A stretch of DNA of 32,000 bases from an uncultured Chloroflexia bacterium (GCA_963704755.1 OY969938.1:3600001-3632000); one strand, 5' to 3'; positions 753-18,200 are shown, counted from the stretch's first letter. A program made the numbers and translations. Notes: a model not told the origin generated them from the sequence alone.

Positions 753-807
753 CCCCAAATCAGGTTATCTACGCGGGCTTCGCGCGCGCAGATAACCTGA
801 TTTGGGG
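753..807 (-). terminator. Long hairpin downstream of the che operon (candidate terminator)
   Basis: CCCCAAATCAGGTTATCT (753-770) pairs perfectly with AGATAACCTGATTTGGGG (790-807), around a GC-rich, partly self-pairing centre. It lies about 80 nt past the cheA-long stop at 890. On the minus strand it is followed by GTTTAAT, only a weak T tract. Confidence 0.4.
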
Positions 808-889: not shown

Positions 890-3085
890 TCAGGCCAGAT
901 CAGGATCCATTTGGCTTTCGCCTTGAAAGCGGCTGGAAATCGAACTCAGGTCTAACAGGATGGCCACTTCGCCTTCGCCCAATAAGGCACAGCCGGCCGC
1001 GTCGCGGGCGTGGGCGAGCTGCCCGGTCAGGGAACGGATGAGCACCTGCTGGCGCCCGATCAATTCGTCCACGGCCAGGGCGACCTGGCGATTTTCTCTT
1101 TCGATCACCACAACCAGGCAACCCAGGTAGCCATTCACCCGTTTTTCCAGCCCGCTCAACGGATAAATCGGCAGCCAGTGTTCGGCCTGGCGTACGAGCG
1201 TGTACCCGCCGCCGGCCGATGCGCACGCCAGGTCGGCCTGATCCGGTACGGCGATGCGCTGGATGGCGCTGACCGGTACGACATACAGAATCGATCCGGC
1301 CCGCATGACCATCCCGTCCACGACGGTCAGGTCGATCGGTACCTGAAGGCTGAAGCACAGCCCGCCCTGGGGATTATTTTGGATCTGTAATCCGCCATCC
1401 CGGCTGGCAAGCGCCTGACTTACTTCAATCAGATCGGCTCTAACGGCGTCCCGGCCAGTTCGCGGGCTATCGATTCCCGCACCGTCATCCTGCACCAGCA
1501 CCTGGATAGCCGTCTCCTTCTGGGCCAGGCTAATCTCCAGCCGGGCCTGGCGCGGCTTGCCGGCGGCTTCGCGTTGCGCGGGTGTTTCGATACTGCGCTC
1601 GATCGCATAGCGGACCAGATCGGGCAGCACCCTGCCCAAAACTTCGACGATGGCCTGGTCAAGCTCTACTTCGCCGCCTTCCAGAACCAATCCAACCTCT
1701 TTTTCGTTACGAGTTGAAAACTCATGAACCATCGCGACCAATGGGTCGAGTAGGTCGGCTGCAGGGCAGATGCCCAGGGAACGGACCTGTTCCTGCAGCT
1801 CGGATAAGGCCGCACCCAGTTTCACGTCCACGCGATAGAGTGTGTCCATGTGATGCGACCATTCCTCCAGGAACGAGACCAGGCAGCGGCGAACGTCGGT
1901 CCCATCCGCCAGGGCAGTCTCGACCAGGCGCAGGATCGATTTTCCCAGGTCGTCGTCGATCAATCGTGTCAGCAGCCGGTGGGATGTGGCCTGGTCGGCG
2001 ACCATTTCGCCCACCGCTTCCATCAGCCCCGGCAGGGCTCGGGAGGTCCTGTCCGGAGCGGATTCCAACCGGGAGTCATCCCTGCCCGGAGAAAGAGGGA
2101 GCAAAAGGGGTGCCGGCTGGACTTCCGATTTTATGCCTTTGACCGGCCAGATAAAAGCGGCGAGGTCGAGCGATCGCTCGACCCCCAATTGGCCGGCGCA
2201 ATCCAGGATGTGCAGAAATTCGTCGGCCAGGTCCAGTTTACTGCGTTGGAGAGCCAGGAGATTTTGCGTGCTCGCAGTCACAGAATCAGAACGGGAGAGG
2301 GCCTGGGCCGTCTCGAGAATGCTGTCCAGCAAGGCGCACACTTCCGTGAAACCCATTCCTTCGGCGGCCAGTTTCAGCGTGTCGATTTCCGCAACCAGCG
2401 CGGCGAATGCGCCTTGGGGATGGGCGGCCAGGCCCTGCAAGCCATCCTCGAGCTTGGGAATCTGTTCCGCGGCGATTTCCAGGAAGATGTCCAGGTAGGT
2501 CGAATTGCAAGCCGGATCGATGTGCTCGACGACCAGTTCGGCAACCGGCTCTGGTTCGCGAGGCGTTTCCGCTGCAGGTGGGGGAATGGCCTCCGGTTCG
2601 GCCGGCGCTGGCCCGGCGGGAGCAGGCTCTTGAGCCGTGGACGCTTGTTGGGGAAGCGGGCTGGTGCCCCCGCTGGGTTTTCGGCTCTCGATCAGGTAGG
2701 ACAGGCGGGCCAGGGCAGGTTCGACCTGTTCGGGCGCGGCATCCGTGTGGCTGGAAAGCACTTCGGCTTGCAGGCTGCGTAATTGGTCGATGATGGCGTA
2801 GAGCATTTCGGTCATCTCGCTGTCCAGCGGAACCCCTTCGTCGCGTACCAGCGATACCAGGGTTTCTGCCCGGTGAGACAACCCCTCCAACACCGATAAA
2901 CCCATCATGCGGGCTACCCCTTTGAAGGTGTGCATGGCGCGAAACAGAGCCGCTACCATTCCACTATCGGCCGGTTCACCCTCCAGCTTGAGCAGGACGT
3001 CTTCGGCCAGATCGAGATTTTCTCGAAAATCCTGGTCGAAGGCGGCCCACAGTTCATCGATTTCGGACGAATTATTTGGACTCAT
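890..3085 (-). CDS. cheA: CheA-like protein: HPt, Pro-rich linker, HPt-like domain with Asp at the His position, degenerate P3/P4, CheW-like P5 (predicted phospho-acceptor pseudokinase)
   Basis: 731-aa ORF. N-terminal HPt motif FRAMHTFKGVARMMGL (His52, codon 2930-2932). Pro/Ala/Glu linker at residues ~136-183. Second HPt-like segment YLDIFLEIAAEQ...VAEIDTLKLAAEGMGFTEV with Asp235 (codon 2381-2383) where His is expected. The kinase-core-like region keeps G1 (DDGAGID), but its N box reads DLVRYAIERSIE and no GxGxG G2 box is visible. The C-terminal CheW-like domain ends ...GCALLGEGEVAILLD. Confidence 0.85.
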   Translation of the reverse strand: MSPNNSSEIDELWAAFDQDFRENLDLAEDVLLKLEGEPADSGMVAALFRAMHTFKGVARMMGLSVLEGLSHRAETLVSLVRDEGVPLDSEMTEMLYAIIDQLRSLQAEVLSSHTDAAPEQVEPALARLSYLIESRKPSGGTSPLPQQASTAQEPAPAGPAPAEPEAIPPPAAETPREPEPVAELVVEHIDPACNSTYLDIFLEIAAEQIPKLEDGLQGLAAHPQGAFAALVAEIDTLKLAAEGMGFTEVCALLDSILETAQALSRSDSVTASTQNLLALQRSKLDLADEFLHILDCAGQLGVERSLDLAAFIWPVKGIKSEVQPAPLLLPLSPGRDDSRLESAPDRTSRALPGLMEAVGEMVADQATSHRLLTRLIDDDLGKSILRLVETALADGTDVRRCLVSFLEEWSHHMDTLYRVDVKLGAALSELQEQVRSLGICPAADLLDPLVAMVHEFSTRNEKEVGLVLEGGEVELDQAIVEVLGRVLPDLVRYAIERSIETPAQREAAGKPRQARLEISLAQKETAIQVLVQDDGAGIDSPRTGRDAVRADLIEVSQALASRDGGLQIQNNPQGGLCFSLQVPIDLTVVDGMVMRAGSILYVVPVSAIQRIAVPDQADLACASAGGGYTLVRQAEHWLPIYPLSGLEKRVNGYLGCLVVVIERENRQVALAVDELIGRQQVLIRSLTGQLAHARDAAGCALLGEGEVAILLDLSSISSRFQGESQMDPDLA

Positions 3086-3091
3086 GATCGA

Positions 3092-3514
3092 TCATGGTTT
3101 AGGGCTCATTTCCATACCGAGGACTTTGTAGATCGCCTGAAATATCTCGCTTGCCCGGCGATCTTCGAGATCGAAGGATACTGAACCCGAAGGTTTAGAA
3201 ACAAACGCATCCGCGCCAAGTCCGAGCGCCTGGCCTACCCGGCGGTGATCGCTGCCGACCAGCGAACTGAGAATGATGATCTTTGCGCGCGTCCGCAAGC
3301 GCGCATGGCGCAAGAATTCCAGGCCGTCCATCTCCGGCATTTCGATATCCAGGAGGATCACGTCCGGTTTTACTTCGGACAGTTTTTGCAAGGCCTCTTT
3401 TCCGTTGGCGGCAGTACAGGCTACCTCCAGCGCGGGGTCCTTGCCGATAATTCTACTGATTGCCAGACGCATTGTCCCTGAATCGTCCACAACCATGATC
3501 TTTTTCTTATCCAT
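3092..3514 (-). CDS. cheY: Stand-alone receiver domain protein (CheY-like, with CheB-type receiver features)
   Basis: 140 aa. Acidic pocket VVDDS, phospho-acceptor LLDIEMPEMDG, IILSS and FVSKP. The stop lies 6 nt before the cheA-long start. Confidence 0.85.
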   Translation of the reverse strand: MDKKKIMVVDDSGTMRLAISRIIGKDPALEVACTAANGKEALQKLSEVKPDVILLDIEMPEMDGLEFLRHARLRTRAKIIILSSLVGSDHRRVGQALGLGADAFVSKPSGSVSFDLEDRRASEIFQAIYKVLGMEMSPKP

Positions 3515-3555
3515 TTCGCCTTCTTTCGATCCACTTACAAATGAGCAGGCGCTTT

Positions 3556-5490
3556 TTAGAAATCTGCGTAGCCGCGTTCGTCGCGGTCGATGGAAGCCGG
3601 CGCCAGGCGGCGGCTGCCATTGCCGCCTTTGGGTTTAGCGCTCCGAGCCGGCTGCTTGTTCGGCGTCTCGGCCGCCGGCCGGATCGCCTGCGCCGTCAAG
3701 TTGGCCGCCTGGCCGGCCCGCAGTTGAAAGCGGGCCACTTCTTCACGCAGCCGGTCGGCCAGCCCGCCCAGTTCGTCCGCCGTGCTGGCCAGCTCTTCGC
3801 TCTGCGAGCTGTTCGACTGGGTGCCCTGGCTGACCTGGCTCATGGCGATGTTGATCTGACCGAGAGCCTTGCTCTGCTCTTCGCTGGCCGCGGCGATCTC
3901 GGCGACCAGGTCCTTGACCTTGACCACGTTCTGGACGATTTCGCCCAGGGAGGTGGAAGTCTCGGCGCTGATGCTGACGCCTTCCTGGACACGGCGGTTG
4001 GAGTCCTCGATCAGCTCGGCCGTCGAATGGGCGGCCTTGGCGCTGCGCTCGGCCAGGTTGCGCACTTCCTGGGCGACCACCGCGAAGCCGCGGCCGTGCT
4101 GGCCGGCCCGGGCGGCTTCCACGGCCGCATTGAGGGCCAGGAGGTTGGTCTGGAAGGCGATCTCGTCGATCACCTTAATGATCTTGGCAATCTCTTGCGA
4201 AGAGCGTGAGATCGAATCCATGGCAGTGGTCATGGTTTTCATCTTCTCCAGCCCAACGGAGGCTAAAGTACTGGTCTGGCTGGCCAACTGGTTGGCAAAG
4301 CTGGCATTTTCAGCGGAAGCCTTGACCTGGGAGTCCGACTCCTCCAGGTTGGAGGCCACTTCCTCGACCGAGGCGGACTGTTCCTGGGCATTGGCGGCCA
4401 GGTCCTGGCTGGAAGCCTGCACCTGCTCGGTGGCCTGGCCTACCTGAGTCACGACCGAATCCACCTGCTGCAAGGTATTGTTCAGCCCTTCGATGGCTGC
4501 TGAGAGGGCCGTCCTGATCCTGGAAAATTCGCCCTTATAATCGCCGTTCGGCTCGACTTTGAGATCGCCTTCCGCCATTTTCTCGGATACGTTGACGATA
4601 TCCGCGACAACCTCACGCAGGTCGGCATTCATCTGGCCGTAGGCCGACCCGGTTTCCTGCAATTTGGCGATCATGGCATTGAAAGCCAGGGCCAAATCGC
4701 CGATCTCATCCGAAGAATGGTAGGTTAACGCTTCGGCCTGGAGGGAAAAAGATTGGGTCAGGTCGCCCTGGGACATGGCCTGCATTGCACCGGCCAGGCT
4801 GGGCAGGTCGGTTTGCGAGATCTGGCGGGCAGTGGCGGCCACCACCCGGGCCCCATTGGACAGCGAGCGAGACAGGAAGAAGGCGATGCCCAGGCCCAGC
4901 AGGATGGCCGCGGCCAGGACGCCCAGGATCTCCATACGTGCCTGGCCATAGGTCTGGCCGGCTTCCTGATAGCTCAGGTCGGCCTGGGTTTCTTTGGCCT
5001 GGACCAACTGGGCCGCATTTTCCTGGATAACGGAGGCATCCGCTTCGGCTGTGGCGAGCAATTCCACGGCCTGGTTATCCTGGTCGGTCTGGGCCAGTTG
5101 CAAGGCGCCCTCGACGACGTTGGCGTAATCGGTGGCGTGGGCATCGATTTGGGCCAGGTAAGCCTGGTCCTGGCTGCTGGCATCCTGATTGAGGACCTTC
5201 ATATCCGCGTCGATGGTTGCGCGAGCGTCGGATTCCTGTTGGACGCGCTGAGAGAATTCAGTCGAACCGGCCTGGTCGATGATCGCATTGGACACGGCGG
5301 CATCGATCGAGACGATGTTCTTCTCCAGGTCATTGGCCACGATGATGCCTTGCAGGTCATTTTGGTAAAGGCCGTCGGTGTCGCTCTTGATCGAATTGGC
5401 GCTCAGAATACCGAACACCCCGACAATGCCGGTCAAAACCAGCACTGCGGCAAAGGCTAACAACAATTTGTTGCGGATATTCAACTTCAT
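3556..5490 (-). CDS. Methyl-accepting chemotaxis protein, two TM helices, periplasmic helical sensor, HAMP plus an extra HAMP-like unit
   Basis: I place the start at MKLNIRNK (ATG 5490), preceded by AGGGAGGGG; the track ORF begins 7 codons earlier. TM1 is [21 protein letters not shown] and TM2 is [23 protein letters not shown] motif: GDLTQS...[14 protein letters not shown]. Signalling hairpin: [40 protein letters not shown]. Confidence 0.9.
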
Positions 5491-5546
5491 TCCAACCCCT
5501 CCCTGTAACAATTAGGTATTTTTATAAATCGACTTTTTGTTTGTTG

Positions 5547-5574
5547 CTGAGTTTCGGAAAAGCTGAAAACTCAG
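5547..5574 (-). other. Intra-operon stem-loop abutting the cheW stop codon
   Basis: CTGAGTTT (5547-5554) pairs with AAACTCAG (5567-5574). It sits directly 3' of the cheW stop (5576-5578) on the minus strand, and no T tract follows. Confidence 0.3.
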
Positions 5575-5575
5575 A

Positions 5576-6121
5576 TTATGCCTCAGGTAATTCACTGTTC
5601 TCCATGGTCGTCAGGTCAACGTCTTGAGGATCCATTAATAGCCGGGTTATATCTAAAATCATGCTGACGCTGTTGTTTTGTTTTGCCAGGCCCAGGACCA
5701 CACCGCGGCTTTCGTTACTGTGCCAGTTCGGCGGTGGGTCGATGTATTCCTGGGGGATCGTGACCACATCCGTGACGCGATCGACGACCAGCCCGGTCTG
5801 AGAATTATTCTGGTCCAGTACGACAATCGTGGTGCGGTCGTCATAATCCCGCCAGGGCAAGCCAAACCGGAGCCTCAGGTCCATCACCGGGATCACTTTC
5901 CCACGCAGGTTCATCGCCCCGCGAATGAAATCCGGCATGTCCGGCACAGCCGAAATGCGCTGCATCCCGACAATTTCGGTCACGTATTGGATATTTACCG
6001 CATAGGTTTCACCGGCTAAATCAAACGTCATGTACATGTGTTCGATTTCCCCGCCTTCGGCAGCCTCGGATAAGGAACCATCGCGCATCGAGATTTGCTG
6101 GTCCGATAATTGTTCTGTCAT
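5576..6121 (-). CDS. cheW: CheW coupling protein
   Basis: CheW-like sequence: FDLAGETYAVNIQYVTEIVGMQRISAVPDMPDFIRGAMNLRGKVIPVMDLRLRFG. AGGAGG lies immediately upstream of ATG-TAC-ATG, so I prefer the second ATG (6121) for spacing; 6127 is the alternative. The upstream part of the track ORF overlaps the mcp stop and is unlikely to be coding. Confidence 0.85.
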   Translation of the reverse strand: MTEQLSDQQISMRDGSLSEAAEGGEIEHMYMTFDLAGETYAVNIQYVTEIVGMQRISAVPDMPDFIRGAMNLRGKVIPVMDLRLRFGLPWRDYDDRTTIVVLDQNNSQTGLVVDRVTDVVTIPQEYIDPPPNWHSNESRGVVLGLAKQNNSVSMILDITRLLMDPQDVDLTTMENSELPEA

Positions 6122-6137
6122 GTACATCCTCCTGATA

Positions 6138-7916
6138 TTAGAAATCTGCGTAACCGCGTTCGTCGCGGTCGATGGAAGCCGGCGCCAGACGGTTGCTGCC
6201 ATTGCCGCCTTTTGGTTTAGCGCTCCGAGCCGGCTGCTTGCGCGACGTCTCGGCCCCTGGCCGGATCGTCTGGCCGGCCCGCAGTTGAAAGCGGGCCACT
6301 TCTTCGCGCAGCCGGTCGGCCAGCCCGCCCAGCTCGTCCGCCGTGCTGGCCAGCTCTTCGCTCTGCGAGCTGTTCGACTGGGTGCCCTGGCTGACCTGGC
6401 TCATGGCGATGTTGATCTGACCGAGAGCCTTGCTCTGCTCTTCGCTGGCCGCGGCGATCTCGGCGACCAGGTCCTTGACCTTGACCACATTCTGGACGAT
6501 TTCGCCCAGGGAGGTGGATGTCTCGGCGCTGATGCTGACGCCTTCCTGGACACGGCGGTTGGAGTCCTCGATCAGCTCGGCCGTCGAGTGGGCGGCCTTG
6601 GCGCTGCGCTCGGCCAGGTTGCGCACTTCCTGGGCGACCACCGCGAAGCCACGGCCGTGCTGGCCGGCCCGGGCGGCTTCCACGGCCGCGTTGAGGGCCA
6701 GGAGGTTGGTCTGGAAGGCGATCTCGTCGATCACCTTGATGATCTTGGCAATCTCTTGCGAAGAGCGTGAGATCGAATCCATGGCAGTGGTCATGGTTTT
6801 CATCTTCTCCAGCCCCACAGAGGCTAAAGTACTGGTCTGGCTGGCCAACTGGTTGGCAAAGCTGGCATTTTCAGCGGAAGCCTTGACCTGGGAGTTCGAC
6901 TCCTCCAGGTTGGAGGCCACTTCCTCGACCGAGGCGGACTGTTCCTGGGCATTGGCGGCCAGGTCCTGGCTGGAAGCCTGCACCTGCTCGGTGGCCTGGC
7001 CGACCTGCACTACGACCGAATCCACCTGCTGCAGCGTATCATTGAGTCCCTCATTCATCTGGGTGTAGGCGGCTGCAGTTTCCTGCAATTTGGCGATCAT
7101 GGCATTGAAAGCCAGGGCCAAATCGCCGATCTCATCCGAAGAATGGTAGGTTAGCGCTTCGGCCTGGAGGGAAAAAGATTGGGTCAGGTCGCCCTGGGAC
7201 ATGGCCTGCATCGCGCCGGCCAGGCCGGGCAGGTCGGTTTGCGAGATCTGGCGGGCAGTGGCGGCCACCACCCGGGCCCCATTGGACAGCGAGCGAGACA
7301 GGAAGAAAGCGATGCCCAGGCCCAGCAGGATGGCCGCGGCCAGGACGCCCAGGATCTCCATGCGTGCCTGGCCGTAGGTCTGGCCGGCTTCCTGGTAGCT
7401 CAGATCGGCCTGGGTTTCTTTGGCCTGCACCAACTGGGCCGCATTTTCCTGGATAACGGAGGCATCCGCTTCGGCTGTGGCGAGCAATTCCACGGCCTGG
7501 TTATCCTGGTCGGTCTGGGCCAGTTGCAAGGCGCCCTCGACGACGTTGGCGTAATCGGTGGCGTGGGCATCGATTTGGGCCAGGTAAGCCTGGTCCTGGC
7601 TGCTGGCATCCTGATTGAGGACCTTCATATCCGCGTCGATGGTTGCGCGAGCGTCGGATTCCTGTTGGACGCGCTGAGAGAATTCAGTCGAACCGGCCTG
7701 GTCGATGATCGCGTTGGACACGGCGGCATCGATCGAGACGATGTTCTTCTCCAGGTCATTGGCCACGACGATGCCTTGCAGGTCATTTTGGTAAAGGCCA
7801 TCGGTATCGCTCTTGATCGAATTGGCACTCAGAATACCGAACACCCCGACAATGCCGGTCAAAACCAGCACTGCGGCAAAGGCTAACAACAATTTGTTGC
7901 GGATGTTTAATTTCAT
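6138..7916 (-). CDS. Methyl-accepting chemotaxis protein, near-identical paralog of 3556-5490 with a single HAMP
   Basis: Same N-terminus ([19 protein letters not shown]), sensor, HAMP and signalling domain as the other MCP. It lacks 45 aa after the HAMP and 7 aa in the C-terminal tail. An alternative start at 7994 forms an ATGA overlap with the cheB stop and would add 26 aa not present in the paralog. Confidence 0.88.
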
Positions 7917-7990
7917 TTCCAAACATTCCTTGATATATTCGTCTGCAATGCTATTAAAAATATTAACTGGGGGATTAATCCCACTTAATT

Positions 7991-9076
7991 TCATTGGAGC
8001 GCTCGCAATAGATAGTTCGCGACGCTATCGATAGGCAATAATTTTTCAGCGGCACCCAGGGCCCAGGCAGCACCGGGCATACCAAAAACAATGCTGGTTT
8101 CTTCGTCCTGGGCAAAGGTATGGCCTCCAGATTGCCGAATTTCTAATAAACCGGCCGCGCCATCGTTCCCCATTCCAGTCAACAAAGCTGCGGCGGCATT
8201 CTTGCCCACATTTTTCCCGATCGAGCGGAAAAGGACATCCACAGAAGGGCAATGGCCGTTTACTTTGTCGGCCTGGATCAACAAGGCCCGGTATTCACCG
8301 CCGGACTGGTGGATTTCGAGATGCCGGTTTCCACCCGGCGCTAACAGCGCCAGGCCGGGCCGCACGCGGTCGCCATCTTGTGCTTCCTTCACCTGGATGG
8401 CGCAAAGTGAATTCAGGCGCTCGGCAAAGCTGGTGGTAAAACCGGCCGGCATGTGCTGGACGATGACGATGCCCGGGCAAGCCGCCGGGAACATCGGCAG
8501 GAGGCGCGCCAGGGCCGACACTCCACCGGCCGAGGCGCCGATCGCGATCACACGGTCGGTCGTCGTTACCAACGACGAATGCAGAAAAGCGACCGCCGAC
8601 GGATCGGGGGCCGCCTTTGAGTTTGTTTTGGGTTCGTTGGGCGTGATCCGTGAGAAACGGTGCACGTCGGATTTGGCCGCATCTTTGACCAGTTCACACA
8701 GGTCGTTCATCAGTACGGGCAAGCCGTCCACAATGCCGACCTTTGGTTTTGTAACCACCCCGAACGCCCCAGCTTCCAGCGCGTCCAGGGTGATCTTTTG
8801 GCCGCGCTCGGCCAGCGAACTGACGATCACCGTGGGGGTGGGATATTGGCGCATGTAGCTCTTCATGAAACTTACCCCATCCATCTCGGGCAGTTCGATG
8901 TCCAGGGTAATCACATCTGGCTTTTCGGTAGTAATCAGGTTCAATGCAATCGAAGGAGTACGCGCCGTACCAATCACCTCGATCTGGGGATCCTGTGACA
9001 GGCTATCGCGTAATATTTTTCTGGCCAGGGCCGAATCATCCACCACCAGAACGCGGATTTTATGGTTTGGACTCAT
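7991..9076 (-). CDS. cheB: CheB protein-glutamate methylesterase (receiver plus esterase domains)
   Basis: 361 aa. Receiver motifs [12 protein letters not shown]...[11 protein letters not shown]...VSSL...VTKP, then an esterase domain with [11 protein letters not shown] and GMGNDGA. Confidence 0.9.
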
Positions 9077-9124
9077 AATTCACCACCGTTACCACCAGTA
9101 TGTCCCTTTCGATGCCCCGGCTTT

Positions 9125-9997
9125 TCAGATCTTGTGGTAGATACCATTATCGATCCTCTTCCAGGGAGAGTTCATCCAATGCAAAGTCTCCGTGACGCTC
9201 GTCAACAGCCAGCCACCCGGGTGGGTGACATCGTATAGATCCCAAATCAGTTTTTCTTGGGTTGCACGATCGAAGTAATAAAGCACATTTCGGCAAAAAA
9301 CCACATGAAAAGGATGCTGAAATGGCCAGGGCAGTTTGACCAGGTTCAAACGACGGAAGGTACAGAATTTGGCCAGCGCCGGGTCCACCTGCCACAAATC
9401 AGGGGAAACCGGGCGAAAATAACGCTTGCGTAAGGGCGGGCTGACCAGCTCTATTTTCTGTTGGGGATAGATACCTTTTTCAGCCTGTTGGATCATGGGA
9501 TAGCTAATGTCAGTGCCCAAGATCGCTACCCTTTCCCGCACCCCGGCCTGGCCAAAAATTTCAGCGAGGATGATCGCCAGGGTATAAACTTCCTCGCCGC
9601 TGGCTGCCGCGGCGCTCCAAACCCGCCAGACTTCTTTTTCGGGCAGGGTCGCCAGGATGTGTTCTTGAAAGAACTGCAAGACCTCGGGCTCGCGGAAGAA
9701 AAAGCTGTGATTGGTGGATACCACCCTGGCCAGTTCCGCCGGTAAATCGGGGTAAGCCGCCGTTTGTTGCAAGTGCTGCTGGAGTTCGTCCAATCCAGTA
9801 AGGCCCAACCGCCAGCAGAGGTTGTGGAGACGCCGGTAAAGGGTTAATTCCTTTTTTGCGTTGTAGTGAATGCCGGTATACTCCGAAACCCATTGGCGCA
9901 GCTTTTCGAAGGTCTCCCGTTCGGCCGGCCGAATATGGTCCAACTGAAATCCGCCGGCAGAGGCGGGGAGGCGATCTTCAAGGTTTGGATCAGTCAT
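9125..9997 (-). CDS. cheR: CheR chemotaxis protein methyltransferase
   Basis: 290 aa. Contains TNHSFFFREP, a SAM-binding-like stretch RVWSAAAASGEEVYTLAI, and FCRNVLYYF. Confidence 0.9.
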   Translation of the reverse strand: MTDPNLEDRLPASAGGFQLDHIRPAERETFEKLRQWVSEYTGIHYNAKKELTLYRRLHNLCWRLGLTGLDELQQHLQQTAAYPDLPAELARVVSTNHSFFFREPEVLQFFQEHILATLPEKEVWRVWSAAAASGEEVYTLAIILAEIFGQAGVRERVAILGTDISYPMIQQAEKGIYPQQKIELVSPPLRKRYFRPVSPDLWQVDPALAKFCTFRRLNLVKLPWPFQHPFHVVFCRNVLYYFDRATQEKLIWDLYDVTHPGGWLLTSVTETLHWMNSPWKRIDNGIYHKI

Positions 9998-10027
9998 AAC
10001 GGCCTAGTATCCACGTATTTTCCGGAG

Positions 10028-11218
10028 TTATCCCATTGCCGAGGTAAATAATTGCTCGATATCCAGGACGATCGCGACTTCTCCTGAACCCAGTAAGGCG
10101 CAGCCGGATCCTCCGCGGATGTTTTTCAAATAGCCGGGCAGCTCTTTGATCATCACCTGCTCTTGACCAAGGATTTCATCCACCGGAAAACCGATATTCC
10201 CCCGGCTGGCCTCTACGATAACCACAACCTGCTCGGTAAGTGGTTTAGGGTTTCCGTTCACAGCCGGATCCTCGTGCAGGCCCATCACCGGAATAACCTT
10301 GCCCTGGCGCAAGACCATTTCCTTGCCCTCGGCCGAGTTCCGGATGATTTCGTCTGCCGCGGGTTGGAAGACTTCCGCTACTGTTTCAATCGGCAGCGCA
10401 TACAGTCGATTATTCGAGTTCACCACCAGGCTCTCTAAAAAAGTCAGGGTAACGGGTAAGATCATGGTGATAGCCGTTCCCCGGCCCGGTTCGCTGGTGA
10501 TTTCGATCCTGCCCCGTAAAGCGCGGACCGCCGTCTGGACAACATCCATGCCGACCCCCCGGCCGGAAAGGTTGGTCACCTCCTTTGCCGTGGAAAACCC
10601 CGGGCGAAAAATGAAATTGAACAGCGCCGAATCGGGCAGATCTTCGCCCTCGGTCGCCAGTCCCTGTTCTATTGCCCGCTGCAGGATCTTTTCTCGGTCG
10701 AGTCCGCGGCCATCATCGGCCACGGTGATCGAAATTTCCTGGCCTTTCTGCGCTGCGCGGACCAGGATCCGGCCCTGTTCGGGTTTGCCGGCCGCCTGGC
10801 GGGCATCTGCCGGTTCGATGCCATGGTCCGAGGCGTTGCGGATCAAGTGCAGCAAGGGATCGTTCAATTGATCGACGACGGTCTTGTCGATCTCGACATC
10901 CTCCCCCTCGACGATGATCTCGAGTTGTTTCCCGACCTGGTGGGATAGTTCGCGGGCCAGGCGTTGAATGCGCCTGAATAATTGGCTGGCCGGGACCAGG
11001 CGCATACTGGAAGCCAGGTCCTGCACCTCGTGAGTGAGCAGCTCCAGGTGATGGGCGGCATTTTCGAACCCCTCCAGCTCGCTGCCAGAAATCGAGGGAT
11101 GATGGGTAACCGATAATACTGCCAGGCCAAGCTCGCCCACAAGGTCGAGTAATTGAGTGACTTTATCTGTTTTTATGCGGATAAATGCATCAGGCTGGAT
11201 TGTTGGTTGCATTGACAT
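10028..11218 (-). CDS. cheA: CheA-type histidine kinase core lacking HPt (P1) and P2: P3-P4-P5 only
   Basis: 396 aa. It starts directly with a dimerisation-type helix (KVTQLLDLVGELGLA). N box HLIRNASDHGIE (10814-10849), G1 DDGRGLD, F box FNFIFRPGFST and G2 SGRGVGMDVV are all present, followed by a CheW-like P5. No HTxKG motif occurs anywhere in the protein. Confidence 0.88.
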   Translation of the reverse strand: MSMQPTIQPDAFIRIKTDKVTQLLDLVGELGLAVLSVTHHPSISGSELEGFENAAHHLELLTHEVQDLASSMRLVPASQLFRRIQRLARELSHQVGKQLEIIVEGEDVEIDKTVVDQLNDPLLHLIRNASDHGIEPADARQAAGKPEQGRILVRAAQKGQEISITVADDGRGLDREKILQRAIEQGLATEGEDLPDSALFNFIFRPGFSTAKEVTNLSGRGVGMDVVQTAVRALRGRIEITSEPGRGTAITMILPVTLTFLESLVVNSNNRLYALPIETVAEVFQPAADEIIRNSAEGKEMVLRQGKVIPVMGLHEDPAVNGNPKPLTEQVVVIVEASRGNIGFPVDEILGQEQVMIKELPGYLKNIRGGSGCALLGSGEVAIVLDIEQLFTSAMG

Positions 11219-11461
11219 CCATTACGAATATTTGTTCCATCGGTAAACTGAGACCAGACGACCCCACTCGAGGCAGGGGTTAACCATGCCCCATATACTT
11301 CATAATGAAGTCAAACGATTAATTTCACGTCAATTTATATTTGTCTTCACCTTCTAAGCATACAGGCGCGGGCGAAAATAAACAGTAAAGGTTAAATAAA
11401 TCCAGCATTAAAAAGAGATAAATGAACCAGTCTTGTCAAAAATATCTATATTTAACGTGAA

Positions 11462-11559
11462 TTCGGGATAAATGAAAAGAGAGGTAATTCGAGTGTGTTT
11501 TTATTCGTGGCGGCGTAGCCGCCACGAATAAAAACACACTCGAAAACTCTTATCCCGAA
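11462..11559. repeat. Nested inverted repeat with a 25-bp perfect palindromic core
   Basis: Core: CGAGTGTGTTTTTATTCGTGGCGGC (11490-11514), loop GTA, then GCCGCCACGAATAAAAACACACTCG (11518-11542). Outer arms: TTCGGGATAA (11462-11471) and TTATCCCGAA (11550-11559). Confidence 0.8.
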
Positions 11560-11780
11560 CGGGTGTTATTTAAAAAAGGTGGCTGCTCAGCCCAACGGGG
11601 AAGAAACCCGAATTTGAGGTGTATGCGGGTTGTTCCACTGCACGCACCTAAAATCCGAGAACTTCTTAGCAGGAGCCTGAGTAGTTACTAAAAATAGTAT
11701 ACGTTCAACTCAAACCTGAGCGGTTTAAATTAATAACTATCCCCCTGACCATTTCACATTCGTTCGATATAAAGCCATTG

Positions 11781-11820
11781 CGTGTGAGTTTTGGCGTTTT
11801 CGGCGCCAGAAACTCACACG
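11781..11820 (-). terminator. Hairpin downstream of tatA (candidate terminator)
   Basis: CGTGTGAGTTTTGGCG (11781-11796) pairs with CGCCAGAAACTCACACG (11804-11820), with one bulged base. It lies 25 nt past the tatA stop. No clean T tract follows on the minus strand. Confidence 0.4.
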
Positions 11821-11844
11821 AGATAATTAACTGGAGCCGGCGTC

Positions 11845-12015
11845 TTAGTGCTTTTCTGAGCTGGCTTCTTTCTTCGTATCACCCTGCAGGCCCTTCTTGA
11901 AGGCCCGGATGCCATTACCCATTTCTGAACCGATCTTACCGATCCGTCCAACACCGAATACCAGCAGCACAATCACTAAAATGATGATCAGTTCAGGTGC
12001 ACCGAAAGCGGCCAT
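11845..12015 (-). CDS. tatA: Twin-arginine translocase subunit TatA/E
   Basis: Start at MAAFGAPELIIILVIVLLVFGVGRIGKIGSEMGNGIRAFKKGL, preceded by AAAGGAG. The TM helix, the FG hinge and the amphipathic helix are typical of TatA. The longer track ORF (to 12084) has no support. Confidence 0.8.
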   Translation of the reverse strand: MAAFGAPELIIILVIVLLVFGVGRIGKIGSEMGNGIRAFKKGLQGDTKKEASSEKH

Positions 12016-12405: not shown

Positions 12406-13476
12406 ATGGCGTCCTTTTCACCCATCGTTTTCACGGGGGGCTACCAACACGAAAACCAGCCCGGCGTGCGTGCTTTTGGGCTTAACACGGAAACAGGCGC
12501 GCTGGCAGCCTGCGGGGAATATTGTGGAATTACGGCGCCGTCCTTTCTCGCGCTGCACCCCAATGGCCGCTGGCTGTATGCGGTCAGCGAGACCGGGATG
12601 GAAGCCGACCAGACCGCCGGCCACGTTCAGGCGATCGCGCTGGATCGCAGCGGCGAGGCGGTTAAGTTCACCCGGCTGAACACCCGGCCGAGCGGCGGCG
12701 ATTTTCCCTGCCACGCGGTTATCGATCCCTCCGGGAAGTGGCTGGTGGCGAGTAACTACGGCAGCGGGGTGGTGAGCGCCTTTGCGATCCGGGAGGATGG
12801 ATCGTTGGACCCCTGCGATGCGCCTGTCCAGCACCACGGACACGGTCCCAACCCGGAACGGCAGGAAGGCCCGCACACCCATTCGGCGATTTTTACCCCG
12901 GATGGGCAATTCGTGATCGTCGCCGACCTGGGCATAGACGCCCTGGTGATCTACCGGCTGGTGGACGGGCGGTTTGAGAAAGTCACAAATGTGGCTGCCC
13001 GGCCGGGCGCCGGTCCCAGGCATATGGCCTTTCATCCTAACCGGCGGGTGTTGTACGTGGTGAACGAACTGGATAGCACCCTGGTGGCCTACGATTATGC
13101 CGATGGCAATTTGAGCGAGCGCGCGACCTTGCCCACTTTGCCCGAAAGCTCGCCGGGAAACCTGGCTGCCGATCTTCACCTGGCGCCAGGCGGGGAGCGT
13201 GTCTATGTTTCGAACCGGGGCGACAACAGCCTGGCCGTGTTCGCGGCCAACCCCCAAGGGGCGTTGGCACCGTTGACCTTCGCACCCTGCGGCGGCAACT
13301 GGCCGCGCAATTTTGCCCTCGCACCAGACGGGCGGTTTCTCCTGGTGGCCAATCAATACAGCAATGAGGTCGTTACCCTGCCGTTGCAGCCCGGCACAGG
13401 CGAAATCGCTGCACCGCTTGCGCGGGTACCCGTGCCGGGTGTTTCCTGTGTCGTTTTTGCGCCGGCAAGGTTCTGA
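12406..13476 (+). CDS. Lactonase-family 7-bladed beta-propeller protein (6-phosphogluconolactonase-like)
   Basis: 356 aa, RBS AAGGAG. Family-typical stretches: HPNGRWLYAVSE, DPSGKWLVASNYGSG, GPHTHSAIFTPDGQFVIVADLGID, HPNRRVLYVVNELDS, APDGRFLLVANQ. Confidence 0.75.
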   Translation: MASFSPIVFTGGYQHENQPGVRAFGLNTETGALAACGEYCGITAPSFLALHPNGRWLYAVSETGMEADQTAGHVQAIALDRSGEAVKFTRLNTRPSGGDFPCHAVIDPSGKWLVASNYGSGVVSAFAIREDGSLDPCDAPVQHHGHGPNPERQEGPHTHSAIFTPDGQFVIVADLGIDALVIYRLVDGRFEKVTNVAARPGAGPRHMAFHPNRRVLYVVNELDSTLVAYDYADGNLSERATLPTLPESSPGNLAADLHLAPGGERVYVSNRGDNSLAVFAANPQGALAPLTFAPCGGNWPRNFALAPDGRFLLVANQYSNEVVTLPLQPGTGEIAAPLARVPVPGVSCVVFAPARF

Positions 13477-13547
13477 GCGGAGCTCAATTACCTTGGCCCG
13501 GGAGCCCGGCGAACATGGGAAAGCCATAGTCACCCGGGCCAAACGTA

Positions 13548-13576
13548 TTGACTTTTTGTTTTCGTTATGCTAAGAT
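13548..13576 (+). promoter_or_regulatory. Sigma-70-type promoter for the LacI-family gene
   Basis: TTGACT (13548-13553), a 17-nt spacer, then TAAGAT (13571-13576), about 30 nt upstream of the ATG at 13606. Confidence 0.55.
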
Positions 13577-13590
13577 GAAAGAGCTTTCAT
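13575..13590. promoter_or_regulatory. LacI-type palindromic operator overlapping the -10 element
   Basis: ATGAAAG-AG-CTTTCAT has perfect 7-bp arms. A matching site occurs at 14645-14658. Confidence 0.6.
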
Positions 13591-13605
13591 AAAACCATTT
13601 GTACA

Positions 13606-14613
13606 ATGAAAAACGGACTAAAAGACCCCACCATTTACGATGTAGCTGAGCTCTCGGGCGTCAGTATCTCTACCATTTCGCGGGTGATCAATACCCCCGA
13701 AAGGGTGAACGCCGATACTCGCAACAAGGTCAATGAGGCGATCGACAAGTTGAATTTTGTCCCCAAAGCCGAAGCTCGGGCCCGCGCGCTCAAGCTGACC
13801 CATCGTATTGGTGTCATCACCCCGTTTTTCACAGCGCCATCCTTTGCGCAGCGTCTGCGCGGTGTGGCGACTGCCTTGAAAAAAGCCGATTACGACCTGG
13901 TGATTTACACGGTCGAGTCGACCGATCAATTGAAAAGTTATCTGTCTTCTTTGCCCATTACCGGTAACCTGGACGGGCTGATTATCATGTCGCTGTCCGT
14001 GGATGACGCCGATGTGCAGCGGATCGTGGATCACCAACTGCCGGCGGTCTTGATTGAGTATCCGCACCCGTTGTTGAACTGCGTGGAAATCGACGATTTT
14101 CAGGGGGGCAAGCTGGCCGGCGAGTACCTGCTCAAAAAAGGGCATCGCAAAATTGCTTTCCTGGGGGATACCGATCTCCCGGAATATGCCATCCATCCGG
14201 TGAGCCTGCGTTTTCAGGGTTTCAAGAAGGCGTTGCAGGATGCCGGCGTAGAAATTCCTAAAGAGTTTATCCGCCTGGCGCCCTACGATCAGGAAATGGC
14301 GCGCCACGTCGCGAAAGAATTATTCGAATTGCCGGATCGACCCACGGCGATTTTTGCCGCGACCGACCTGCAAGCTTTGGGTGTCATTAAGGCTGCCCGT
14401 CAATTAAAGATCAATGTTCCGGAAGAACTGGCGATTATCGGGTTTGATGATATCGACATGGCGGAATTTGAGGACCTGACCACCATCCGCCAACATCTGG
14501 ATGAATCGGGCCGGTTGGCAGTGGAGATCTTGATGTCTCACATCGACGACAATTCGCGGCCCGTTCAACATTCGCAGCTCCCGTTGGTTGTTGTAGAAAG
14601 ACTGACCGTTTAA
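13606..14613 (+). CDS. LacI-family transcriptional regulator
   Basis: 335 aa. N-terminal HTH TIYDVAELSGVSISTISRVIN, followed by a periplasmic-binding-protein-like sugar-binding fold. Confidence 0.9.
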   Translation: MKNGLKDPTIYDVAELSGVSISTISRVINTPERVNADTRNKVNEAIDKLNFVPKAEARARALKLTHRIGVITPFFTAPSFAQRLRGVATALKKADYDLVIYTVESTDQLKSYLSSLPITGNLDGLIIMSLSVDDADVQRIVDHQLPAVLIEYPHPLLNCVEIDDFQGGKLAGEYLLKKGHRKIAFLGDTDLPEYAIHPVSLRFQGFKKALQDAGVEIPKEFIRLAPYDQEMARHVAKELFELPDRPTAIFAATDLQALGVIKAARQLKINVPEELAIIGFDDIDMAEFEDLTTIRQHLDESGRLAVEILMSHIDDNSRPVQHSQLPLVVVERLTV

Positions 14614-14644
14614 GGAGCAAGGCGTTAAAAAATTTCGCCGTTTA

Positions 14645-14658
14645 TGAAAGTGCTTTCA
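14645..14658. promoter_or_regulatory. Second LacI-type operator, upstream of the ABC binding-protein gene
   Basis: TGAAAG-TG-CTTTCA has the same half-sites as the operator at 13575-13590. It lies about 100 nt upstream of the binding-protein start. Confidence 0.55.
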
Positions 14659-14760
14659 GATAAACAATTTCATGGCAGGAGGTGTACCTATAAGATAGTC
14701 TGATCCTCGGATTGCTCGCTGTAAAAATCATCAAGATATAAGGATTTCAGGAGGATGAAA

Positions 14761-16221
14761 ATGAGCAAGAAAAGATTGTCAGTTTCTATAGTAAGCCTGC
14801 TTCTTCTGGTCTCGCTGCTTCTTACGGGATGCGGCGGGCAGGCTGCGGCTACAACTGTAGCGGCACCTACCGAAGCCCCAACCGTAGCCCCAACCGTAGC
14901 CCCAACCGTAGCCCCAACCGAAGCCCCAACCGTGGCGAACACCGAAGCTGCGACGGTTGCCGCGACAGAAGCCCCGACGGCGGAAACTGTTGCGACCCCG
15001 AACTGCGGCACCGACCCCGTTGTACTCAATGCCTACTTTGAGACCGGGTTCGACCTGCCCTTCAAGCTCGCGGACGAGTTCACGAAACAGTACCCGAATG
15101 TGACCTGGGATATCAAACAGGATCAATTCGCCAACCTGATCAACGAGACGCCGCGCCTCCTGGCCGGAGACAACCCGCCGGATCTCATCCGGCTGCCAAC
15201 CATGGTCTCGTTTGCCAAACAAGGGCTGTTGATGAACCTCGACGATTACGCGAAAGCCTTTGGCTGGGATCAATGGCCGGTTCCTCAACTCAATCAGAAC
15301 CGGGTCGGCGCGGATGGTATCCGTGGCGCCGGATCGCTGTATGCGATGGGCCTCAACTATAGCCTGACGGGCATTTTCTACAACAAAGAACAGGCGGCCC
15401 AGATCGGTATGACCGAGCCTCCTCAAACGCTGGCCGAGTTCGATGACCTGCTGGCCAAAGCCAAAGCTGCCGGCCTGCAACCGATCATGCAGTGGGGTAG
15501 CGCAAAGAGCGGTATGGGCCTGGCCTTCCCGCTGCAGGCGCTCATGGCCTCGGTTGGTGATACTCAACCGATTAGCGAGTGGATTTATAATAAAGCCGGT
15601 GCGACGATCGATACGCCCTCGAACCTGGTCGCTGCTCAACACCTGCAACAGTGGATCACGGAAGGTTACTTCCCCACCGACATCAACGCGATCGAATACA
15701 CCGATGCGAACGCCCGCTTCGTCAAGGGTGAAGGCGTCTTCATCTTCAATGGCGACTGGGAAAATGCTGACTACGATACCAATATGGCCGGTAATGTGGG
15801 CTTCTTCCTGATGCCCGCCGAAAAAGCGGGCGGCAGCCCGGCGGCCATGTCCTCGCCGTTGACCTACGGTATCGCCGCCAAGGCCAAGAACGCCGATTGC
15901 GCCGCTTTCTTCCTGAACTGGGTAGCTTCGAACGACGCGGCTCGCCAGATCGATGTGGAAGTGGGTGGTTCTAACCCCGGTGGCCCGGCCGGTGCGACCA
16001 TGCCGGCAGTGACCGCAGGTTCGGTCACGAATGAAACCCTGGCTGCGGGTACCGTGATCGGCGAAGCCGGTACGGCCATGGACTTCATCGCCAACGCGAC
16101 CAGCGCGATCTTTGCCCAGGGTTGGACACCTGAACTGCAGAAAATGGTGGGCGGCAAGGAAGATGCTGCTGGACTGCTCAAGGCCGTCCAGGCAGAGTAC
16201 GAACTGGAACTGACTCAGTAG
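14761..16221 (+). CDS. ABC sugar transporter substrate-binding lipoprotein (family 1 solute-binding protein)
   Basis: Signal peptide with lipobox LLLTGCGG, then a Thr/Pro/Ala/Glu repeat linker and a CUT1-type binding fold. AGGAGG directly abuts the ATG at 14755, so the ATG at 14761 has the better spacing. Confidence 0.85.
   Translation: MSKKRLSVSIVSLLLLVSLLLTGCGGQAAATTVAAPTEAPTVAPTVAPTVAPTEAPTVANTEAATVAATEAPTAETVATPNCGTDPVVLNAYFETGFDLPFKLADEFTKQYPNVTWDIKQDQFANLINETPRLLAGDNPPDLIRLPTMVSFAKQGLLMNLDDYAKAFGWDQWPVPQLNQNRVGADGIRGAGSLYAMGLNYSLTGIFYNKEQAAQIGMTEPPQTLAEFDDLLAKAKAAGLQPIMQWGSAKSGMGLAFPLQALMASVGDTQPISEWIYNKAGATIDTPSNLVAAQHLQQWITEGYFPTDINAIEYTDANARFVKGEGVFIFNGDWENADYDTNMAGNVGFFLMPAEKAGGSPAAMSSPLTYGIAAKAKNADCAAFFLNWVASNDAARQIDVEVGGSNPGGPAGATMPAVTAGSVTNETLAAGTVIGEAGTAMDFIANATSAIFAQGWTPELQKMVGGKEDAAGLLKAVQAEYELELTQ
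14869..14940 (+). repeat. 12-bp in-frame tandem repeat (about 5-6 units) encoding (P-T-V/E-A)n
   Basis: The units read ACCGAAGCCCCA, then ACCGTAGCCCCA three times, then ACCGAAGCCCCA, then ACCGTGGCGAAC. They lie inside the lipoprotein linker. Confidence 0.9.
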
Positions 16222-16280
16222 TGATAAAGGCCGCGTGACAAGTGCCTGCGTCTAAAAGGTTGACATTGAAATCTAAATCG

Positions 16281-17210
16281 ATGACAGACAACAGCTCCGT
16301 GGCATCTGCATCCTCCCGGCGGATCTTCCCCCAAAAGGTGGTCCGCCGGGAGACCATCACCGGCTGGCTGTACGTGGTGCCCGCGCTGGTGATGTATGCA
16401 GTGTTTGTGCTGGTGCCCCTCTTGATGAGTATTCGGTACTCGTTCTATAGTTGGAACGGTATCGGAGCAATGCATTGGGTGGGGCTGAAGAACTATGTGA
16501 CTGTCTTTAAGGTTCCTGACCTTATAGGTACCATTTTTAATGCATTCAAACTGGTCTTGTTTTTTAGCATCATCCCGGTAGCGCTTGGGCTCCTGGTCGC
16601 GAGTGTCATCCACCGCGTGGCGCCCGGCCAATTCGGAGAGGTAGCCCGGACCGTTTTGTTTCTTCCCCAAATTATTCCGCTCGTCGCAGCGGGGATCATC
16701 TGGGGCTGGCTGCTGGCTCTTCCGGGCCTGGTCAACGAGATCCTCAAGGCAGTTGGGCTCAGTGTGGTTGCCCGCGCCTGGCTGGGTGACTTTACCTGGG
16801 CGCTCCCCGCGGTGGGCTTCATCGGTGTTTGGGTGCTGTTGGGGTTCTGTACTGTCTTGCTGCTGACCGGCATCAATAAGATCGATCCGTCTCTGTACGA
16901 ATTGGCCAGGATCGACGGCGCCAGTTGGTGGGAAGAATTCACCTCGATCACCATGCCGCTGCTGAAAAATGAGATCGGTGTCTGTCTCACCGTCACCGTG
17001 ACCAATGCGCTGGCCGCATTCGATATCGTTTATGTGACCACGGCCGGCGGCCCCGGTAATACCACTTCGGTGCCCGGAATCCAAATTTATATCCTCGCTT
17101 TTACCCAGCAGCGGATTGGCCTGGCCTCTGCTCTGGCGGTTTTGCTCATGATCCTGGTTGTGGTGGTCATTCTTCCTATCCAACGCCTGAGCAGGGAGTC
17201 CACGTTATGA
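16281..17210 (+). CDS. ABC sugar transporter permease (MalF/UgpA-like)
   Basis: Multi-TM protein with the EAA-type loop region ...IDPSLYELARIDGASWWEEFTSITMPLL. The track ORF begins at a GTG (16242); the first ATG is at 16281. Confidence 0.85.
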   Translation: MTDNSSVASASSRRIFPQKVVRRETITGWLYVVPALVMYAVFVLVPLLMSIRYSFYSWNGIGAMHWVGLKNYVTVFKVPDLIGTIFNAFKLVLFFSIIPVALGLLVASVIHRVAPGQFGEVARTVLFLPQIIPLVAAGIIWGWLLALPGLVNEILKAVGLSVVARAWLGDFTWALPAVGFIGVWVLLGFCTVLLLTGINKIDPSLYELARIDGASWWEEFTSITMPLLKNEIGVCLTVTVTNALAAFDIVYVTTAGGPGNTTSVPGIQIYILAFTQQRIGLASALAVLLMILVVVVILPIQRLSRESTL

Positions 17211-18031: not shown

Positions 18032-18200
18032 ACAGCAAGACCAAAAGCAGAAGGTCAATCCATCCGTTGAAGCCTGTACTGTAAATGATGATGGTAGTGA
18101 ATGAGCTTAAGCCATGGAACGTTTATCTGCTTCCAGGCCTGGCTTTATGTTCTTATCGGAAACGATATTTCAGTACACGCATTCAAGTAGCTGGTTACAG

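Follow-up and report, generated by a model that had tools for sequence, protein, structure and literature searches.

The CheA4/CheA3 split kinase of Rhodobacter sphaeroides is the textbook case of a bipartite, bifunctional chemotaxis kinase. In canonical CheA dimers, the P1 domain is also phosphorylated in trans, by the P4 domain of the partner subunit, and the Asn residue of the N box serves as a ligand of Mg2+ ion. Here, we describe a chemosensory operon with two dissimilar cheA genes in a 32,000-nt stretch of DNA from an uncultured Chloroflexia bacterium (GCA_963704755.1 OY969938.1:3600001-3632000); this whole stretch is referred to as the window, and positions are counted from its first letter. 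The operon is best explained as a divergent, orthologous CheA4/CheA3 split-kinase system of the cheOp3 type in Chloroflexota, a reading that we hold with high confidence.

In R. sphaeroides, CheA4 phosphorylates CheA3 at His51, neither protein autophosphorylates, and phosphorylated CheA3 donates to CheY6 and CheB2 (PMC2817712). A CheA3:CheA4 complex is formed, and free CheA3 is the better phosphatase of phosphorylated CheY6 (CheY6-P) (PMC3591291); the phosphatase activity has been reported for a 794-aa region of CheA3. Berry, Andrianova, and Zhulin, using HHpred and AlphaFold, showed that this "794-aa linker" holds two more degenerate Hpt domains and a degenerate P2, together with H-kinase_dim and a HATPase_c domain missing a helix and the Mg/ATP residues (PMC10542144). 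In the same work, CheA4 was proposed to have arisen through duplication of the CheA3 core, and the system was called unique, with orthologs in twenty other Rhodobacteraceae genomes (PMC10542144). Earlier surveys had found the system rare (PMC2829493, PMC10924463), and the literature ties it to Rhodobacteraceae and to a cytoplasmic receptor cluster (PMC10542144, PMC10924463, PMC2829493). Full-text literature searches gave no report of a CheA4/CheA3 system outside Rhodobacteraceae. What is new in the window is the occurrence of this system beyond that family, with transmembrane receptors and a compact acceptor; neither a new mechanism nor a new kind of system is revealed.

Division of the kinase functions between two CheA proteins

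Open reading frame (ORF) calling and Pfam domain searches of each ORF place eight consecutive genes on the minus strand from 11218 to 890, in the order short CheA, CheR, CheB, methyl-accepting chemotaxis protein (MCP), CheW, a second MCP, a single-domain receiver (REC), and long CheA. A preliminary description made from the sequence had given the same eight genes and the limits 890-11218, which are exact. It had also read the kinase function as split between a short CheA having all ATP-binding boxes and no histidine phosphotransfer (HPt) domain, and a 731-aa pseudokinase with a good HPt (His52) and a core that had lost the N-box Asn/His and the G2 box. Domain content and motif loss, as established here, agree with this division, and the F box can be added to the losses.

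In the Pfam search, the short CheA of 396 aa shows H-kinase_dim (weak), HATPase_c (E 7e-18), and CheW (E 2e-21) and no Hpt; its P3, P4, and P5 domains occupy residues of about 12-71, about 73-257, and 264-394, respectively. The P3-P4-P5 part of Thermotoga maritima CheA (3ja6/1b3q) matches it end to end with a phmmer E of about 1e-82 (9e-83). All its boxes are intact, namely the N box (HLIRNASDHG), G1 (DDGRGLD), the F box (FIFRPGFST), and G2 (GRGVGMD). The ORF begins at the first start codon past an in-frame stop and cannot be extended, and the database copy starts at Met3 (394 aa). Moreover, the 620-bp AT-rich spacer upstream contains no HPt-like ORF, with a TatA-like gene lying further up. 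An N-terminal extension or a missed exon, which according to the preliminary description would have refuted its reading, was rejected on the grounds of the in-frame stop and the absence of an HPt-like ORF upstream.

In the long CheA, only Hpt (residues 11-104, E 9e-15) and CheW (591-718, E 8e-13) exceed the Pfam threshold, and searches of isolated fragments add sub-threshold matches to Hpt (E 0.014), HATPase_c (E 0.0055, 17.6 bits), and H-kinase_dim (E 0.26). His52 is located within FRAMHTFKG, and its codon is at window 2930-2932. BLASTP aligns the long protein with the short CheA over long residues 372-722 (27% identity, E 1e-40). The N box of the long protein reads DLVRYAIERS, in which His is replaced by Asp and Asn by Tyr, and a 37-residue gap takes out the F box, the G2 box, and the ATP lid; G1 (DDGAGID) is kept, and comparison with the CheAs of the PDB gives the same picture. 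Neither of the two proteins combines an HPt and a competent HATPase_c in one chain, as a canonical CheA does. Compared to the canonical CheA of Escherichia coli and T. maritima, the P1, P3, P4, and P5 folds are recognisable across the two window proteins, but the functions are on two polypeptides, P2 is absent, one P4 is dead, and there is an extra pseudo-HPt bundle.

An AlphaFold2 (AF2) model of the long CheA, built on 19 homologs with a mean predicted local distance difference test score (pLDDT) of 78.9, shows P1 as five helices (5-135), followed by a Pro-rich disordered linker (139-187) and a second bundle, of four helices (195-299, pLDDT about 80-94). After a further disordered segment (315-346) come long P3-like helices (346-438), an alpha/beta domain resembling P4 (439-586), and P5 (587-712). 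A Foldseek search of the PDB identified the C-terminal half as CheA P3-P4-P5 (1b3q and 6s1k, E about 1e-21), and the P4 relic matches isolated CheA P4 structures with target-normalised template modelling (TM) scores of 0.72-0.75. The best PDB match of P1 is the P1 domain of CheA3 (3kyi/3kyj), with a phmmer E of 2e-22 and 82.8 bits, compared to 49 bits for the P1 of T. maritima; the Foldseek superposition on R. sphaeroides CheA3-P1 has a target-normalised TM of 0.94, a root-mean-square deviation of 1.3 A, and 39% identity. His52 is invariant in all 85 family members compared, as is the HPt motif FRA[MV]HTFKG.

A HMMER search with the long CheA over 1.84 billion representatives returned just one close relative, P0002, at ~65-66% identity. 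It belongs to a related locus (L001) that has the identical eight-gene order, with a long CheA of 726 aa. The two long proteins are most alike in P5 (82% identity) and P1 (81%), followed by the P3-like helices (74%), the dead P4 (60%), and the second bundle (54%), whereas the linkers reach about 40%. Purifying selection acts on the long CheA, as judged from these values, and it includes the dead core because P3/P4 identity lies well above that of the linkers. By analogy with R. sphaeroides, the dead P3/P4 is probably a conserved scaffold or pairing element beside the short kinase, a role that fits the array packing proposed for the R. sphaeroides proteins (PMC3964821).

Orthology with cheOp3 and distribution of the system

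The cheOp3 locus of Cereibacter sphaeroides (L082) was reached through the short-CheA homolog P0293 (48% identity). Its genes, which adjoin fli genes, are arranged in the order CheA4, CheR3, CheB2, CheW4, ParA-like, TlpT, CheY6, and CheA3. The window operon has the same outline, as the preliminary description had stated: both cheA genes accompany cheR, cheB, cheW, and MCP genes, and a CheY6-type regulator stands directly before the long cheA. The two CheA proteins also share their architectures with the cheOp3 proteins, the short one being P3-P4-P5 and the long one running from P1 through dead P3/P4 to P5. All components are orthologous at 30-50% identity. In BLASTP comparisons, the identity is 48.5% with CheA4 over the full length, 39% with CheR3, 49.6% with both CheB2 and CheW4, and 49% with CheY6. 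The long CheA aligns with CheA3 in two parts, at 31% (window residues 6-288 with CheA3 residues 2-293) and at 30% (352-724 with 668-1027).

A profile scan with the long CheA over 185,579 species genomes yielded 170 relatives, and the ORFs were classified in the best 80 loci. About 60 of these best 80 of 170 loci contain, in this order, a short CheA with intact boxes, CheR, CheB, CheW, an MCP, a REC, and a long CheA having neither N box nor G2; the loci outside this group are mostly incomplete contigs. Many of the hosts sharing the order are Rhodobacterales, and others belong to Rhodospirillales, Methylococcales, Methylocystis/Hyphomicrobiales, Rhodomicrobium, and Polyangiaceae or are represented by a Chloroflexi metagenome-assembled genome (MAG). 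Through the locus of Cereibacter ovatus (L044), which matches the crystallised CheA3-P1 of R. sphaeroides with 228 bits, the long-CheA clade is tied to this structure. Several orders of Proteobacteria thus have the system, as do Polyangiaceae and Chloroflexi/Anaerolineae, a distribution beyond that stated in the literature. With respect to the window itself, the closest named relatives of the short CheA are "Anaerolineae bacterium" and "Chloroflexi bacterium" (52-59%), two of the top named matches of the long CheA are from Anaerolineae bacterium, and the closest named relatives of the transketolase encoded elsewhere in the window are "Anaerolineae bacterium" (70%); by these matches, the host is probably a member of Anaerolineae.

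A neighbor-joining (NJ) tree was calculated from the P3-P5 cores of 59 sequences (376 columns, Kimura distances, and 100 bootstraps). All CheA3-like long proteins, including that of the window, are monophyletic in 100/100 bootstraps, and the short and long CheAs of the window are sisters in 0/100. In both subtrees, the window protein pairs with its L001 counterpart in 100/100. The identities show the same pattern: the short CheA of the window is 82% identical to that of L001, 55% to that of the Chloroflexi MAG, about 49% to the CheA4 proteins of Rhodobacterales, and 27.7%, in the tree alignment, to its own long partner. One ancient split with co-inheritance of the pair would explain the tree, which convergence would not. 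Common descent is therefore seen on both sides, the long protein grouping with CheA3 orthologs and the short one with CheA4-like proteins. As far as can be judged from sequence comparison, the cluster belongs to the cheOp3-type system as a diverged ortholog and is not an independent reinvention. The preliminary description had taken it for a second, apparently independent example of the architecture, a view contradicted by the orthology at 30-50% identity, the best matches to 3kyi/3kyj, and the two bootstrap results.

The same description had suggested that the recognisable relics of P3/P4 might make the acceptor an evolutionary intermediate. The relics themselves are real, being seen with AF2, Foldseek, and Pfam, but they do not mark an intermediate because they are found in nearly all family members and have been described in CheA3 (PMC10542144). 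Compared to cheOp3, the P4 relic of the window is less eroded, with G1 and the loop that follows the N box still present, whereas in one respect the window protein is more reduced than CheA3, since the counterpart of residues ~294-667 is gone.

Several unsplit CheAs having an HPt and intact boxes were also observed (L053 from a Deltaproteobacteria MAG, and P0288, P0290, P0299, and P0307, each of roughly 600 aa). They are 48-50% identical to the short CheA of the window, which is about as near as the CheA4 of Rhodobacter, and are candidates for the ancestral form of this class.

Divergent components and the proposed mechanism

The receptors differ from those of cheOp3 in being transmembrane proteins with a four-helix-bundle (4HB) sensor and in being duplicated, with one copy between cheB and cheW. 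Hydropathy shows two hydrophobic segments around the 4HB sensor in both MCPs (36-54 and 214-232 in MCP 1). By comparison with MCP 2, the likely start of MCP 1 is Met27 (about 7916); the likely start of MCP 2 is Met8 (about 5490). The signalling domain aligns without gaps and at equal length with E. coli Tsr (query 23-261 and Tsr 280-518), whereas a 14-residue length difference separates it from the 44H receptor of T. maritima; judged from the alignment length against Tsr, the window MCPs are of the 36H type. The signalling domain of TlpT has likewise been reported as 36H class, and the MCPs are 45-47% identical to TlpT in the cytoplasmic part only (MCP 1, 47%). At the nucleotide level, the two MCP genes on either side of cheW share 96-98% identity (repeat blocks 3706-4005/6267-6566 and 4626-4925/7052-7351), and an additional HAMP_2-like insert of about 33 aa is the main feature that sets MCP 2 apart from MCP 1. 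This high identity points to a recent tandem duplication or to (ongoing) gene conversion. In L001, the first MCP (4667-6481) is called in three pieces of 37, 344, and 179 aa, which means either that this duplicated copy is a pseudogene or that assembly introduced a frameshift into it.

In proteobacterial loci, the operon MCP nearly always has no transmembrane segment, whereas the Chloroflexi-type loci (L001, L002, L083, and L084) have one to three 4HB transmembrane MCPs each, in addition to a short CheA, a long pseudokinase, CheR, CheB, CheW, and REC. Because these Chloroflexi-type loci pair the split with ordinary transmembrane receptors, the split is of greater age and wider occurrence than the literature states, and it does not represent an adaptation to cytoplasmic arrays. 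L002, L083, and L084 differ from the window in that the number and order of MCPs vary and in that their long proteins are full-length (1012-1066 aa) with the middle block present; in L083, cheR and cheB lie upstream of the short cheA. The combination of a cytoplasmic TlpT-like receptor and the ParA-like PpfA is absent from the window, in which no ParA-like gene (Walker-A ORF) was found; both the transmembrane receptors and the missing ParA-like partner had been recognised in the preliminary description. Since a ParA-like gene follows cheW in just 14 of 66 related loci, PpfA does not define the wider family. Two further differences from cheOp3 are the host, Chloroflexota as opposed to Alphaproteobacteria, and the absence of flanking flagellar genes, L082 being located amid fli genes.

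The REC protein retains the conserved residues D10, D11, D56, and K107, and its best PDB match is CheY6 (3kyj_B) with 117 bits, the next match having 77 bits. Residues 12-15 are S-G-T-M, compared to A-A-M-M in CheY6, and G13/T14 resemble the corresponding residues of E. coli CheY (S15 and T16).

The long CheA of cheOp3 is 1028-1095 aa in length, compared to 731 aa in the window. The BLASTP comparison finds no counterpart in the window protein for CheA3 residues of about 294-667, a missing block of about 310-370 residues that comprises the third HPt-like bundle and the P2-like domain and has the family consensus ...FYI.RAD.N.D...ITNVTVF...LFDFL...LDP.G...; of the full CheA3 middle region, with its two extra degenerate HPt domains and degenerate P2, only the second HPt-like bundle is kept. 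Among the best 150 matches of the HMMER search, the lengths of 75 CheA3-like proteins are bimodal, with about 60 at 970-1530 aa and about 14 at 547-760 aa. Because at least nine other compact, apparently full-length relatives lack the same block, the compact long CheA can be classed as a recurrent minority subtype, not peculiar to the window genome. A 792-aa CheA3-like protein of a Hyphomicrobiales MAG (L008, 1691-4069) also has no middle block yet keeps a longer remnant of the ATP lid, which suggests independent trimming of the middle and of the lid region in different lineages. The compact acceptor offers a natural deletion series for mapping the phosphatase region of CheA3 and the role of the dead kinase core.

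Assignment of the retained second bundle as a pseudo-HPt is based mainly on the four-helix bundle in the AF2 model, the weak Pfam match, and the published HHpred result for CheA3. An hhalign comparison with P1 is weak (E 0.018, probability 2.6%) and equates an acidic residue of the bundle with the position of the phospho-His. A motif of its own, [DE]-x-L-x-[HY]-A-A-x-Q-[MLI]-G, is seen in this bundle across 85 family members; its acidic residue is D in 48/85 and E in 13/85. The window protein keeps D235, L237, A240, and A241, and together with L001 it departs from the motif at two conserved positions, with L239 in place of H/Y and G243 in place of Q. This motif may be a phosphatase site, which we regard as a lead and not as a result.

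A mechanism could be envisaged as follows, in which trans-phosphorylation, the phosphotransfer targets, and complex formation are carried over from the biochemistry of R. sphaeroides. A membrane array would be built from the two transmembrane MCPs of the 36H type, CheW, and the P5 domain of each CheA. The short CheA would dimerise via P3 and bind ATP in its intact P4, acting as the only ATP-competent kinase. Because it has no HPt, it would phosphorylate His52 of the long P1 in trans, as in R. sphaeroides (PMC2817712, PMC3591291). Phosphorylated P1 would then hand the phosphoryl group to Asp56 of the CheY6-like REC and to the receiver of CheB, and CheR and CheB would give receptor adaptation. 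The dead P3/P4 would keep the long protein close to the short kinase, either within the array or as its partner in a complex.

Several points weigh against an orthologous system working in this way. The CheA4-like clade is recovered in only 31/100 bootstraps, with the canonical CheA of L053 nesting inside it, and the tree is an NJ tree of 376 columns that includes a fast-evolving clade. The function of the proteins in this organism is read from their sequences and from analogy with R. sphaeroides, and the view is confined to the window, so that a canonical CheA or a stand-alone HPt may be encoded elsewhere in the genome. The residues of CheY6 that set its specificity for CheA3-P1, A12 and M13, are G13 and T14 here, and for this reason the P1-REC interface would not be identical to that of CheA3:CheY6. 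Finally, with the block corresponding to CheA3 ~294-667 gone, the bifunctional kinase-phosphatase behaviour may not carry over.

Three other explanations for the gene pair can be set against the orthologous split kinase. A host in a different phylum, transmembrane receptors, and P4 relics that are better preserved than those of Rhodobacterales proteins, namely G1 (DDGAG) and the ETPAQREAAGKP loop, would suit an independent, convergent origin, in which a canonical cheA was duplicated and sub-functionalised apart from the Rhodobacter event. We nevertheless give it hardly any credence: the CheA3-like cores are monophyletic and the window pair never sisters, the short CheA is far closer to other short CheAs (48-55%) than to its long partner (27.7%), the gene order recurs, the pseudo-HPt2 motif is common to the family, and P1 and REC are nearest to CheA3-P1 and CheY6. 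It is just as improbable that the long CheA is still an autonomous kinase, using ATP in a reduced pocket, with the short CheA as an accessory second kinase. The preserved G1 DDGAG with the invariant Asp533 and the confidently predicted P4 fold (pLDDT about 85-95) speak for such a pocket, but the N-box Asn and His are Tyr and Asp, the 37-residue gap has deleted the F box, the G2 box, and the ATP lid, HATPase_c reaches just 17.6 bits, and R. sphaeroides CheA3 does not autophosphorylate (PMC2817712). Very unlikely, too, is a decaying, functionless long gene, with the short CheA using an HPt encoded elsewhere or the operon being inactive. The protein is indeed shortened in the middle relative to most relatives, and the evidence comes from the window and not from the whole genome. 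However, the ORF runs intact over its 731 codons, identity to the L001 ortholog is 81-82% in P1 and P5 compared to 40% in the linkers, the HPt motif is invariant in 85/85 relatives, and at least nine other proteins that appear full-length are compact as well.

Within the orthologous split kinase, the fate of the phosphatase could be explained in two ways. The system could be monofunctional, the phosphatase having been lost, the long CheA acting as donor and scaffold only, and the signal being ended by autodephosphorylation of REC. In agreement with this, the region of 794 aa in which the phosphatase is reported to lie includes CheA3 ~294-667, whose counterpart is gone, the second bundle has neither H/Y239 nor Q243, both conserved in the family, and no CheZ, CheC, or CheX family member was found in the operon by Pfam. 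On the other hand, the second bundle with Asp235 is still present and moderately conserved; the loss is a real possibility, though we would not assume it. A more specific and rather unlikely proposal sees in the compact long CheA a naturally minimised CheA3, in which P1 and a single pseudo-HPt bundle are joined to the dead scaffold of P3-P4-P5. The motif of the retained bundle would then be the CheY6-P phosphatase site, which docks the receiver and hydrolyses without donating, and the window lineage, in which the H/Y and the Q of the motif are lost, would be a kinase-only derivative at its transmembrane array, perhaps with the short and long proteins joined into a heterodimer via the conserved P3-like helices.

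Positions of features and neighbouring genes

Features of the window, with strand and supporting evidence
Feature	Position	Strand	Evidence
Short CheA (CheA4-like), 396 aa	10028..11218	-	Pfam; PDB phmmer; 48.5% identity to C. sphaeroides CheA4
CheR methyltransferase (CheR3-like)	9125..9997	-	Pfam CheR E 7e-45 and CheR_N; 39% identity to CheR3
CheB methylesterase with N-terminal receiver (CheB2-like)	7991..9076	-	Pfam CheB_methylest E 9e-61 and Response_reg; 49.6% identity to CheB2
MCP 1: two transmembrane segments, periplasmic 4HB sensor, HAMP, 36H-type signalling domain	6138..7994	-	Pfam (4HB_MCP_1, HAMP, MCPsignal), hydropathy
CheW adaptor (CheW4-like)	5576..6202	-	Pfam CheW E 3e-38; 49.6% identity to CheW4
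MCP 2, near-identical paralog of MCP 1	3556..5511	-	Pfam, direct repeats, translations
Single-domain response regulator, CheY6-like, 140 aa	3092..3514	-	PDB match to CheY6; 49% identity to CheY6
Long CheA (CheA3-like pseudokinase), 731 aa	890..3085	-	Pfam, BLASTP, AF2 model, Foldseek
P1/HPt of long CheA, residues 5-135	2681..3073	-	3kyi_A phmmer, Foldseek; His52, K55, H71, E74 conserved
Second four-helix bundle (pseudo-HPt), residues 195-299, Asp235 at phospho-His position	2189..2503	-	AF2, weak Pfam Hpt, family motif
P3-like dimerisation helices, residues 346-438	1772..2050	-	AF2; Foldseek to 1b3q, 6s1k
Degenerate P4, residues 439-586	1328..1771	-	Alignments, HATPase_c E 0.0055, Foldseek
P5/CheW-like domain, residues 587-718	932..1327	-	Pfam CheW E 8e-13
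Candidate terminator: hairpin, 26-nt arms (92% complementary), ~85 nt past the last stop codon of the operon	753..807	.	Hairpin search
Candidate terminator of upstream tatA-like gene: perfect 27-nt-arm hairpin, AT-rich spacer	11488..11544	.	Hairpin search

The true start of cheW is probably internal to the called ORF because the 5' end of this ORF overlaps the stop of MCP 1. The two hairpins listed in the table bracket the operon, have unrelated sequences, and are probably terminators or insulators; the upstream one is a candidate terminator of the tatA-like gene that would insulate the operon. The flanks of the operon are AT-rich, with a GC content of 0.485 (1-1000) and 0.451 (11001-12000) compared to 0.53-0.62 within the operon, and no mobile-element genes were seen at these flanks. 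A scan for sigma-70 promoters gave no enrichment (4 sites found, 4.7 expected).

Directly upstream of the operon and on the same strand is a small TatA/E-like gene (MAAFGAPELIIILVIVLLVFGVGRIGKIGSEMGNGIRAFKKG...; 11845-12015, minus strand), named from its sequence alone. The remainder of the window (12406-32000), in which no motility genes were found, is devoted to carbohydrate and pentose-phosphate metabolism. It encodes a 6-phosphogluconolactonase-like protein, a LacI-family regulator, a sugar ABC transporter, sucrose phosphorylase, a GntR-family regulator, a beta-phosphoglucomutase-family hydrolase, a class II aldolase, RpiA, transketolase, a transaldolase-like protein, and xylulokinase. Two deoC paralogs are arranged in tandem at 30636-31253 and 31296-31997.

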